A stretch of 64,000 bases of DNA from Escherichia phage HMD-6. The stretch lies in the sequence record PQ505080.1; one strand, written 5' to 3'. The notes under the pieces are model-generated. The model did no database searches. It saw only the letters and a list, made by a program, of their open reading frames with translations, and had not been told where the DNA came from. Positions 15,371-17,884 of this stretch are shown here, piece after piece (the stretch's first letter is position 1; every line of letters begins with the position of its first letter). Both the position numbers and the translations under genes were made by a program.

Positions 15371-17884
15371 TCTGCTCTTTTCCTACCATAAACGGCCCTA
15401 CCTGGCAAGTGGAATAATTGACGAGCCATTAATCCCGCACACTGTACAGATATACACGTAAAATAGTTATTGCATAATCTTTCATACTGTGGTAGCAGGG
15501 TCATTTTTACACGTTTTCCTTCCAAAAAATGCACATAATGCAGCTATTGCACAAAATTTAACCTGATGCACATTTTCAGTATACTGTCAACAATTAAAAA
15601 CCCTTATAAATCATACACTTACCCCACCACAAAAGCGTGCCCTACGTGAAAAATCGGGTGTAACTATAGCCGACAGATCTCAGAATCCACGTACGATCGC
15701 CATTCTATAGCCTGCGAAGTATTTATTCCAACCACAGAATAACGGAATAGTCAACACCTTTATACAATAATTATTCGTATAAACTGCATAACATAAATTT
15801 TCTCATGTGTCAACATTTTTCGTAAACAGTCCGAAATTGTCACGATAGGTTACTATAATCAGAGAAATCTTTAGTCGTCTAATGTTTACTGCACATAACT
15901 ATACTGACTGGAATCATTAGATGACTAATAGAAAGATAAGAAATAGTTAATAATGTAATTGTTTTACCTGTAACAATAAGGCAACTATGCAAACGAATGT
16001 CATGGCGCGACGGAGTCGCGACATAATATAAAAGCAGTAACAATCACCCCCGTGATAGTTTGCCTGCAAACTATTGATCAGATCATAGTTGCCTTGTATT
16101 TAGTTAATCATGACATAATAAGCAAGGCAACTATAGATCTGATCATAGTTGCCCTGCTTTTATATTATGTCATAGAAACGCCCGAAGGGGTGACCTGGTC
16201 ACCTGGCATAGCCAGCGAAATATTATTACCTTGCTAATTGTTTTCATGCAAACGAATGTCATGGCTTATCATCTTTGTGTAAACTGTCAGGGTGTAGACT
16301 ATTCAGGTGTAAACTATCCAGGCGTAAACAGTCTGCGCAGGAACAATCTATACGTGAACAATTTATACGTGAACAGTGAAACATGAAATAATAACAGTAG
16401 TTATTGTGTCAAAAGTGTATAAGGTGCCCGGTGTGTATAAGGTGTCACATTGTGCCCGGTGTGTCAGACAAGTTTTTCTCCTCTTTGTCAAGCACTGCAT
16501 GAAAAATTTACAATCTGGTATGGTAGCATTTTTGCGGCCCTGTTTACATTCAGAAGTGTATGTATAATCCTTGTTGTGTGGGCGTTTAGACGTCTGGACG
16601 GTCAGAAGTCCGCAGGTTAATAACTAATCTATTGGTTGCTAACTATATCCCCCACAAATAATAAGAAATGCAATTGTTATATGCGTAAACAGTAACTCAT
16701 GCTATCAATCCCTGTATGTATCGCCAGTGGTGCGCATAATGGGTATTATGTTAAATTGCCCGTAATGATAACGATTCTCACAATGATAAGTATTCTCATT
16801 CATCCACACAAAATAGCTTGCAAATGTTGCGCCACTGTGTGAACGGCCTCGCCTATTAATTTGCCTCACTGCTCCGATATTTGAGAATTGTTATAAGAAT
16901 GAGAAGTATTCCCATTCCGTCCGCCTGGCAGCACTCCTGTAGGTCAGGTCAAAATCGTGGCAGAACTGGACCCCCTTCAGATATTTCTGGCTGACTCTTC
17001 AGGCCTGTGTGGGAAAAGCCAACCTCTCCGGCGGCGGGGAGGGATCAATTAAAAAATTTACGTGGGGTATGAAGCGCTCTTCAGGCAAGGTGTGTATTAT
17101 GGGATGAAACCCTCTTCAGGCAATGATATTTGTGGGTGTGATATTTGCTGGAAAGCCAGATATGACGGGACTCCCGGCGGGGCAGGGGTAGTACAGGCAG
17201 GGAAAATGTGGAGAATGTAGTTGGGGAAATTGATCAGGCAGGTAGAGTATGGAATATGTTACAGGTATGTTAAATATGGAGGTAAGATATTTGTAAGGTT
17301 TGTGCGTAAAATCAAAGACTTAAGTGGTGTTGTGGTATTTTCTATAAATAATTCAAGTTTAATAGGTGATATTTGCCTCTATCCACTTTGTATGGTATCC
17401 ATATTCTAATTGAATTGGTTTACAAGTGTATATAAAGTATACAAATTAAAGATACAAGAAACCCCCCTCCCCCTTCGGCTACCATTCACCTTTTCCTCTG
17501 ACTGGTACTTAAACACTTATTCAGACTCTTCAGGTTATCACCCATATATCATATGGCAGTGACTGGTGTCCTCCGGCCCCTCTTTCGTCACCCGTCCGCT
17601 TCGCCATGCTAATGCCATAGCTAACTGTTCGGTTGTTCACCCTGTTCACTCAGGTGTATCTCCATACCCCTTCAAACCGAAGAGAACAGAAAACCCGAAT
17701 TACTCGGTAAAAGAAAAGAGAAGAACTTAATTTTATCAGGATAGGCAAGAATGTCAAGGCATGACTGCTCACTAAACAAGCAAACAGTCATGTGTGGGAG
17801 GTAAGTGATTGTGGTGGTAGGAAATTTAGTTGAAAGGTGTGTTATAGGTGCTTCCAGCACTTTAGACGGGCAGCTAATTGTGTG
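15371..17884. other. 2.5-kb non-coding repeat-rich region between convergent gene blocks (candidate origin, packaging or injection-control region)
   Basis: No convincing ORF; dense direct/inverted repeats, iteron-like arrays, nested palindromes, Fur-box-like motifs. Confidence 0.6.
16276..16378. repeat. iteron-like array (GTGTAAACT / CGTAAACAGT / ACGTGAACA variants, about 6 copies)
   Basis: Direct reading of tandem 13-16-bp related repeats. Confidence 0.55.

Follow-up and report, generated by a model that had tools for sequence, protein, structure and literature searches.

In phages T3 and T7 the terminal repeat must be duplicated during genome maturation, as otherwise half of the genomes in a concatemer are lost (PMC5923468). 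How phages with a short direct terminal repeat (DTR) restore that repeat is understood only in outline, and only for T7 and T3. The Vequintavirinae are among the most frequently isolated phages of E. coli and Salmonella and are used in therapy cocktails. A terminal repeat has already been published for two vequintaviruses, although it is ignored in most database records. We analysed a stretch of 64,000 nt of Escherichia phage HMD-6 (PQ505080.1; hereafter the window), which database comparison assigns to Vequintavirus, as an rV5-like E. coli myophage. A region of ~2.5 kb (about 15360-17880) in this window contains no credible genes and houses a nested palindrome. The rV5 genome paper draws the stretch as a grey 'non-coding' box to which no function is assigned. 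Here we suggest, at a confidence that falls somewhat short of an even chance, that this palindrome is the form which a conserved non-coding DNA element takes in Vequintavirus. The element would act as a DNA hairpin at the genome end, where it would help to regenerate the terminal repeat, to initiate or place the cuts of terminase for packaging, or both. The genomic context, namely the position at a genome end, is the main new information beyond the initial annotation, which had reported the palindrome without it.

The nested palindrome is real. Its outer arms, GACATAATATAAAAGCAG and CTGCTTTTATATTATGTC, are complementary at 18 of 18 positions and lie 116 nt apart (Table 1), which agrees with the initial annotation except that the coordinates given there were one off. 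With gaps of up to ~300 nt allowed, no other perfect inverted repeat in the window is as long as this one of 18 nt, and the maxima of 30 shuffled windows were just 11-14 nt. The window has nine inverted repeats of 11 nt or more, four of which fall in the palindrome locus. The sequence of the outer arms is single-copy in each genome. The inner inverted pair that had been described, GATCAGATCATAGTTGCCTTG (16076-16096) and CAAGGCAACTATAGATCTGATC (16123-16144), is likewise complementary save for one bulged T; in its fuller extent it consists of TGATCAGATC-ATAGTTGCCTTG and CAAGGCAACTAT-A-GATCTGATCA, again with a single bulged base. The segment ATAGTTTGCCTGCAAACTAT between them and the left arm, in contrast, is not the perfect 20-bp palindrome it had been taken for, since it has two 9-nt arms around a 2-nt centre, and this quasi-palindrome is degenerate in most relatives. 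A secondary-structure prediction, one of the checks that had been proposed, gives for single-stranded DNA of positions 16015-16178 a folding energy of -44.1 kcal/mol on the + strand and -45.7 kcal/mol on the - strand, compared to about -12 for shuffled sequences. The corresponding z-scores are -12.3 (+) and -13.1 (-), and none of 200 dinucleotide shuffles equals the native fold. Moreover, the motif ATAGTTGCC/GGCAACTAT has exactly four copies in the 64 kb, all of them at the palindrome locus.

The position of the palindrome relative to the genome end emerges from its relatives. For the Mydovirus KPP-1 a direct terminal repeat of 514 bp has been determined from twofold coverage and PhageTerm (PMC9862379). 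This repeat and the palindrome of KPP-1 are 308 bp apart in the homologous gene-free region, and transfer of the KPP-1 repeat boundaries led us to expect a repeat at about 16465-16925 of the window. Two database records, OX460980 and Pr121LW, start exactly at 16467, and three others (HdK5 and the revised records of bov10K2 and bov22_2) start exactly at 16925 on the opposite strand. HdK5 has an exact repeat of 459 bp at both record ends, which maps to 16467-16925 of the window, and Korf et al. (2019) reported terminal redundancies of 458 bp in the vequintaviruses EdH4 and HdK5. In UPEC06 the two ends share an exact repeat of 462 bp, which is separated from the palindrome of that phage by 236 bp. 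Further repeats have been reported in the relatives Jab (475 bp), BME3 (342 bp) and Schickermooser (328 bp). By homology, the window is thus predicted to contain a 459-bp DTR with fixed genome ends at 16467 and 16925. The window, KPP-1 and UPEC06 share the order of GC box (described below), palindrome, spacer and repeat, with a spacer of 295 bp in the window. This places the palindrome in unique DNA, 754 bp away from a physical end of the virion chromosome and, in a concatemer, a short way upstream of the junction. The target of a protelomerase (telRL-type), which would be a perfect palindrome of ~50 bp without interruption, does not fit this arrangement, as the arms of the element are 63-211 nt apart in the set of homologues and the genome ends are direct repeats and not hairpins.

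As evidence for termini we accepted only record ends that are true repeats, with identical prefix and suffix, or records starting exactly at the boundaries. Many other record ends fall into the region and were rejected, since several are assembler artefacts. 241Ecol014PP has a 99-nt overlap and SalP219 one of 127 nt, and metagenomic contigs break at scattered places. The break of the SalP219 contig falls precisely on the outermost base of the right arm, which shows that assemblers tend to break at the palindrome. The contig-end overlaps of SalP219 and 241Ecol014PP could be mistaken for terminal repeats. In most of the ~120 Vequintavirus records the DTR is unannotated, the genome has been opened elsewhere or the phage is called circularly permuted, and the same holds for many records of the Vequintavirinae in general, which have been opened arbitrarily or carry the label 'circularly permuted'.

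The element is not confined to Vequintavirus. Homologues were detected in Seunavirus, Mydovirus, Avunavirus, Septuagintavirus-like phages and one phi92-like phage, with PVP-SE1, EspYZU15, KPP-1, Av-05, TH18, A73, UPEC06 and metagenomes as sources. A block of 36-50 nt, comprising the GC box and the left arm, is ~92% conserved in Seunavirus, Cronobacter phages, Avunavirus and TH18, and in all of these a perfect partner arm follows 136-188 nt downstream. In A73 (Septuagintavirus) the syntenic site has the arms GACACTATAAAACGAG ... CTCGTTTTATAGTGTC, preceded by GGCGCGACCGTAGGGAGC, yet its interior is quite different, with 63 nt between 21-nt arms or 73 nt between perfect 16-nt arms. The ATAGTTGCC motif is absent from A73 and from the other genera. 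A further case is BME3 (PP239276), a phi92-like phage of a sister subfamily, which has a perfect 15-bp inverted repeat with a TAATAACGC core, nested dyads and an interior of 117 nt. Its palindrome adjoins the BME3 terminal repeat; we do not give distances, because the record is oddly duplicated. Both ends of that record carry a duplicated unit of 861 bp (the 342-bp repeat plus 519 bp), and what its authors label 'DTR-L' does not match the repeat shared by prefix and suffix. In total, at least six lineages of several genera agree in the place and orientation of the element and in the boundaries of its stem.

When IMG/VR and metagenomes were searched for the pattern of the box, the set grew to 38 loci with 32 distinct elements and 12 arm/box types. 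The elements were selected by a filter for a perfect partner arm, and the stems were aligned from their outer end. Across the 12 types, stem positions 1-4 (GACA/TGTC) and 7-9 are invariant. The remaining 11 of the 18 positions (5, 6 and 10-18) vary among lineages, and every variant is a Watson-Crick pair on both arms; not a single G.T or A.C pair was found in the outer stem of these types. The sole departures are shorter stems, of 16 bp in A73 and of 17 bp in one metagenomic lineage. The stem also has a sharp inner boundary, as position 19 is non-complementary in 12 of 12 types and positions 19-22 in nearly all. Matches that failed the perfect-partner filter proved to be unrelated GC-rich DNA or elements cut by a contig end, and none of them has imperfect arms. 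The interiors, which range from 63 to 211 nt, cannot be aligned between genera, yet they always form nested hairpins (z about -7 to -14). For nine elements of the Seunavirus/Mydovirus type RNAalifold predicts 49 pairs. Seven of these show compensatory changes, no change affects a single side, and practically no pair is disrupted; the covariation extends to the small interior hairpins.

These data bear on whether the element works at the level of transcription. It lies where two gene blocks converge, a + strand block that ends at 15329 and a - strand block that begins at 17885-18100, and the rV5 authors expected bidirectional terminators where gene blocks converge. The palindrome might accordingly be a large bidirectional terminator, or an RNA hairpin that insulates the converging units and stops read-through at the junction, but we consider this improbable. 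The arms of Vequintavirus and A73 do have the layout of such a terminator, with an A-tract, the two stem halves and a T-tract (AAAAGCAG...CTGCTTTT), and a sub-hairpin at ~16120-16159 that is followed by TTTTATATT is annotated as a terminator in Murica and Alma. The T-tract, however, is absent from the arms of Seunavirus, Mydovirus and Avunavirus (GTGTTATAGTGTC, GCGTTATTGTGTC), both gene blocks own distant terminator-like hairpins (at 15342-15361 on the left and 17707-17695 on the right), the multi-branched interior of 116-211 nt would make a poor terminator hairpin, and a scan for consensus terminators did not list the element. Moreover, none of the 18 covarying pairs (11 in the outer stem and seven in the RNAalifold set) shows a G.U intermediate or a one-sided change, which is unusual for an RNA stem. 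A scan of positions 15000-18200 against Rfam, on both strands, produced no match at E-values up to 1. Under RNA folding parameters the - strand is the more stable one in 31 of 32 elements, but shuffled sequences are equally biased, since the + strand is C-rich, and after control for composition the asymmetry is gone (z about -11 on both strands). Triloops of the GNA type, such as the one in the GC box, are typical of DNA. The lack of wobble among the 18 covarying pairs, the GNA triloops and the poor conservation of the terminator features therefore make us favour DNA over RNA as the form in which the palindrome would act. We also looked for a sigma-70 promoter inside the element and rejected it, as there are only extended -10-like TGACATAAT motifs, which the promoter scan does not list and which are not conserved in other genera.

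The second conserved component is the GC box, which abuts the left arm in the Vequintavirinae and occurs on the + strand only. No conserved flank was found on the other side of the palindrome. Anchored at its loop, the box reads GCGA[G/C]C-G[T/G]A-G[C/G]GAGC in most genera and GCGAC-GGA-GTCGC in the window. The closing C-G pair of this predicted mini-hairpin is invariant, the second pair is G-C, C-G or A-T, and the loop is GTA or GGA; beyond the second pair most genera have tandem A.G/G.A, while the window has Watson-Crick pairs. The box would hence form a C-GNA-G loop closure on a short Watson-Crick stem. Triloop hairpins with C-GNA-G closure, of the d(GCGAAGC) type, are classic DNA mini-hairpins of very high stability.

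That the GC box is conserved in its sequence, beyond its structure, might point to an array of binding sites for a dimeric or oligomeric protein, such as a small terminase subunit or a regulator, in which the dyads would be duplex sites. The four exact copies of ATAGTTGCC/GGCAACTAT would suit such an array, as would the four copies of GACAYWATAW, a motif that in the window is confined to this one stretch of 400 bp, and the additional arm cores (TTGTGTC) located downstream in Av-05 and TH18. Operators, however, are rarely perfect palindromes, and here 11 of 18 arm positions change among lineages while a complementarity of 16-18 bp stays perfect. The spacing of the arms ranges from 63 to 211 bp, the interior hairpins covary too, and ATAGTTGCC is missing in other genera, so that we regard an array of duplex sites as an unlikely explanation. 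Of the three functions that the initial annotation had offered for the palindrome, a nicking or resolution site and an origin hairpin are consequently the favoured ones, whereas an operator for a dimeric protein fits less well. A structure-forming cis element is supported by the Watson-Crick covariation, the nested-hairpin interiors and the adjacency to the terminal repeat, while the changes at 11 of 18 arm positions under perfect pairing and the absence of ATAGTTGCC elsewhere speak against a simple operator. The palindrome would thus act as DNA, and neither as RNA nor as a plain operator.

Within Vequintavirus the core of the element (16012-16180) is present in 117 of 119 records with 80-97% identity, and the flanking DNA is found in 119-121 records. 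Among these are 17-19 'Campylobacter phage' records (MG0656xx, host C. jejuni) that are 88-96% identical to E. coli vequintaviruses here, so that their host labels look doubtful as far as this non-coding region is concerned. The sole phage without the core is FV3, with two records. The 20-mer ATGCAAACGAATGTCATGGC occurs twice in the window (15987 and 16246) and brackets the element, whereas FV3 (NC_019517, 1521-1560, compared with 15987-16265 of the window) has one copy, which is followed directly by the sequence that in every other phage comes after copy 2. FV3 thereby lacks 259 bp, which include the GC box, the palindrome, the hairpin cassette to the right of it and one copy of the direct repeat. 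The simplest reading is a 259-bp deletion, of the slipped-strand kind, between the direct repeats that flank the hairpin, with an assembly error as the alternative. The initial annotation had held that absence from a close relative with conserved flanks would count against the structure. FV3 is such a relative, but the other 117 of the 119 records and the other genera retain the element, and we take the loss to argue that at least one phage can do without the element, which is not to say that the element is functionless.

Other parts of the element vary more freely. In phita32 and O157 typing phage 5, 33 extra nucleotides are inserted at the apex of the central hairpin. The HMD-6 copy is alone in its improved quasi-palindrome and in the perfect pairing of TGATCAGATC with GATCTGATCA. 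The hairpin cassette at 16181-16215 is missing from ECP2303 and L004, and in a metagenomic lineage (L109, L143 and L029) the same cassette is located within the palindrome, at its apex. Small GC-rich cassettes of hairpins whose triloops are of the purine-N-A type (GAA, GTA, ATA, AGA) behave like movable modules, and the interior of L029 holds a multi-hairpin insertion of ~80 nt.

This variation raises the question of whether the palindrome has a dedicated function at all. It could be a quasi-palindrome that is kept by template switching, the relic of a small mobile element or an invertible segment. The window copy pairs better than those of its relatives, as correction by template switching would yield, small hairpin cassettes come and go, and FV3 lost the element between 20-bp direct repeats. 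The same place, orientation and stem boundaries are retained in at least six lineages of several genera, however, the element is single-copy per genome, and its locus does not tolerate insertions in the vequintavirus Bas54 (see below). The boundaries of the FV3 indel lie 13 and 74 nt from the arms, which means that the direct repeats are not a target-site duplication, and the orientation of the interior is the same in 38 of 38 loci. We therefore think it very improbable that the element lacks a function of its own. For the same reasons two specific candidates were rejected. An inverton is contradicted by the single orientation of all 38 loci (isolates, IMG/VR and metagenomes), in which TAAC or TGAC follows the left arm; the annotations consulted list no recombinase near the element, though no dedicated search for one was made. 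A miniature inverted-repeat transposable element (MITE) or other derivative of an insertion sequence is contradicted by the FV3 boundaries, which are off the arms, and by an arm sequence that occurs once per genome.

For the region as a whole there is a genetic hint of importance. A HIDEN-SEQ study of Bas54 yielded not one transposon insertion within the intergenic region of ~2 kb, and its authors conclude that the locus has an important function. This intolerance is compatible with an element of a replication origin, in which the hairpin, once exposed by unwinding, would load a helicase-primase or prime synthesis and the nearby iterons would bind an initiator. Iterons at 15-bp spacing, other repeat families and AT-rich stretches adjoin the element, the hairpin is conserved with Watson-Crick-only covariation, which points to DNA, and the GNA triloop of the mini-hairpin is of a type reported in phage origins. 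In addition, 9-mers resembling the DnaA box (with at most one mismatch) number 18, compared to 8.4 expected. This enrichment of near matches is weak, however, and there is one exact DnaA box only. No initiator gene is linked to the element, the iterons are not conserved between genera, FV3 does without the element, and the constant place by the terminal repeat is more directly explained by a function at the genome end. The switch in skew at this site coincides with the change in transcription direction, as is also the case in the rV5 paper, and is hence uninformative. An origin element is accordingly a possibility to which we give a rather low weight, and it overlaps with a function at the genome end if replication starts at the ends. 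A cluster of GATC sites for Dam, in the style of P1 pac or oriC, was discarded: there are four GATC within 70 bp, two of them specific to the window, and this density is matched elsewhere in the window.

We return to the proposal that the palindrome is a DNA hairpin in the biology of the genome end. The element, when unwound or nicked, would snap into a hairpin that serves the concatemer junction in vivo. In one speculative version of this proposal a site-specific nick in the - strand at the junction of GC box and left arm would come first. The released 3' end would then fold back on the perfect stem and could prime synthesis rightwards, through the 295-bp spacer and the repeat. Terminase would finally trim both products, by which both neighbouring genomes would gain a full terminal repeat and every genome cut out of a concatemer would have two of them. 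Such a nick and fold-back would account for the invariant and perfect outermost pairs, for the sharp stem boundary and for the fact that only the flank distal to the repeat is conserved; strict Watson-Crick covariation together with a sharp stem boundary would be the signature of a self-priming DNA hairpin. That box and hairpin form a device which regenerates the terminal repeat by nick, fold-back and self-priming in short-DTR myoviruses (the Vequintavirinae and their phi92/phAPEC8-like relatives) is, in this precise form, a doubtful idea. A role in repeat duplication, without which T3 and T7 lose half of the genomes of a concatemer, would make the element strongly beneficial but not strictly essential, which fits the viability of FV3.

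Several points weigh against a hairpin at the genome end. The HIDEN-SEQ result covers the whole 2 kb and does not resolve which part of it matters, and FV3, unless its assembly is wrong, shows that the element is not strictly essential. The spacer between palindrome and repeat is not conserved and varies from 236 to 308 bp. The perfect arms could stem from the correction of a quasi-palindrome by template switching and not from selection on each pair. The hairpin, the nick and the effect on packaging are all things that we infer. A scan of the right end of T7 detected no comparable inverted repeat, at most 7-11 nt, and the only precedent is the hairpin for duplication of the terminal repeat that Chung, Nardone and Hinkle reportedly proposed for T7 in 1990. 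Finally, two reports call vequintaviruses circularly permuted or headful on the basis of PhageTerm. The first of them (PMC8407724, Table 1) lists T4-like phages as 'fixed' and rV5-like phages as 'circular permutated', whereas T4 biology and the DTRs found here would lead one to expect the reverse, and its GenBank records, in their revised form, start exactly at the repeat boundary.

The features of the locus are collected in Table 1. The iterons and repeats between the palindrome and the DTR are candidate terminase or initiator sites, and they recall the variable short repeats that flank the terminal repeats of T7-type phages. The order of box, palindrome, sigma-70-like promoter and second cross-genus block is the same in seven lineages, and the promoter is conserved in KPP-1, PVP-SE1 and EspYZU15. 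Promoter and GTGGTGCGCATAATGGGTATTATGTTAAAT block face a G-rich, gene-free ~1 kb (16800-17400; GC 0.50, GC skew +0.40), which runs into antisense genes. An early non-coding transcript may start from the promoter inside the putative DTR; the Rfam scan produced no match in the G-rich stretch. The motif (A/C)CTCTTCAGGC occurs four times in the gene-free region (16994-17536), with a fifth copy at 18172, and similar motifs are present in PVP-SE1 and A73. Outside the locus, ARAGORN predicts a tRNA-like gene of 99 nt with a four-base anticodon (atcc) at 60946-61044, within a tRNA cluster at 60477-61289.

Table 1. Features of the gene-free region around the nested palindrome, in window coordinates; the strand is given where a feature is directional.
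Feature	Position	Strand	Remarks
Direct repeat, copy 1, ATGCAAACGAATGTCATGGC	15987..16006		20/20 identical to 16246-16265; shares its final bases with the beginning of the GC box
Conserved GC box, TGGCGCGACGGAGTCGC	16003..16019	+	stops exactly at the start of the left arm
Predicted GC-box mini-hairpin, GCGAC-GGA-GTCGC	16007-16019	+	from the loop-anchored pair table
Left arm of the 18-bp outer stem, GACATAATATAAAAGCAG	16020..16037		covariation over 12 arm/box types
Small interior hairpin, ATCAC-CCCC-GTGAT	16043..16056		predicted in folds; kept in Vequintavirus relatives
Quasi-palindrome, ATAGTTTGC-CT-GCAAACTAT (9+2+9)	16055..16074		degenerate in relatives (ATAGTTTGTCTGCAATCTAT)
Central long hairpin, left half, TGATCAGATC-ATAGTTGCCTTG	16075..16096		includes a single ATAGTTGCC motif
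Apex loop of the central hairpin	16097..16122		includes TGACATAAT at 16111-16119; a 33-nt insertion is tolerated in relatives
Central long hairpin, right half, CAAGGCAACTAT-A-GATCTGATCA	16123..16145		one bulged base
Right arm of the 18-bp outer stem, CTGCTTTTATATTATGTC	16154..16171		inverted-repeat search and covariation
Three GC-rich mini-hairpins, CCC-GAA-GGG, GGTGAC-CTG-GTCACC and CTGGC-ATA-GCCAG	16181..16215	+	read from the sequence
Direct repeat, copy 2	16246..16265		right boundary of the FV3 deletion
Iterons of the GTGTAAAC/GTGAAC type, ~15 bp spacing	16277..16375	+	number and sequence differ among relatives
Repeats GTGTATAAGGTG (x2) and GTGCCCGGTGTGT (x2)	16415..16464	+	end 2 nt short of the terminal-repeat boundary
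Predicted direct terminal repeat (DTR), 459 bp	16467..16925		by homology; the palindrome ends 295 bp to the left
Sigma-70-like promoter, TTGTCA-18-TACAAT	16485..16514	+	just inside the DTR, directed away from the palindrome
Second cross-genus block, GTGGTGCGCATAATGGGTATTATGTTAAAT	16727..16756	+	inside the DTR

We found no description of the palindrome, the GC box or their relation to the repeat in the searchable literature. The analysis gives the ~2 kb 'non-coding' region an anatomy, consisting of a repeat with its boundaries, flanking repeats, a covarying hairpin and a putative recognition box. This anatomy ties in with the intolerance to transposon insertions and yields a sharply testable model, in which the stem is broken and restored. 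For genome engineering it suggests that the element should be avoided or deliberately preserved.

Among known systems, junction processing in T7 and T3 is the one that the locus resembles in its layout. In both cases there is a short direct terminal repeat, an inverted repeat in the unique DNA beside it, and variable short tandem repeats between the two. The differences are that HMD-6 is a myovirus of 137 kb and not a T7-like podovirus, that the element is far larger (152-245 nt, nested) and is flanked by a conserved GC box, and that the right end of T7 shows no comparable inverted repeat. A second group are the hairpins of single-strand initiation (ssi) sites and origins, exemplified by ssiA/ssiB of the RSF1010 oriV, the complementary-strand origins of G4 and phiX174, and ssoA of rolling-circle plasmids. 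These too are long, imperfect, non-coding hairpins of 100-250 nt whose structure is conserved over sequence, with small conserved motifs and iterons alongside. The present element differs from them in its location at the end of a linear double-stranded DNA phage genome and in its strictly perfect outer stem, and we know of no linked initiator and of no primase specificity for it.

Bidirectional terminators share with the element the site of convergent transcription, the succession of A-tract, stem and T-tract in Vequintavirus and A73, and the annotations in Murica and Alma; they are set apart from it by the T-tract that is not conserved elsewhere, the very large branched interior and the lack of G.U pairs. 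The GC box recalls the d(GCGAAGC) mini-hairpins and the hairpin promoters of the phage N4 virion RNA polymerase, with which it has the N-C-GNA-G-N' arrangement and a stem of 5-6 positions in common. No N4-like virion RNA polymerase is known in these phages, and the mini-hairpin is here only the flank of a larger element. Invertons and MITEs, finally, also have perfect inverted repeats of 15-21 bp that bound a short variable segment, whereas the element at the vequintavirus genome end has a fixed orientation in 38 loci, is single-copy and syntenic, and shows no target-site duplication at its arms.

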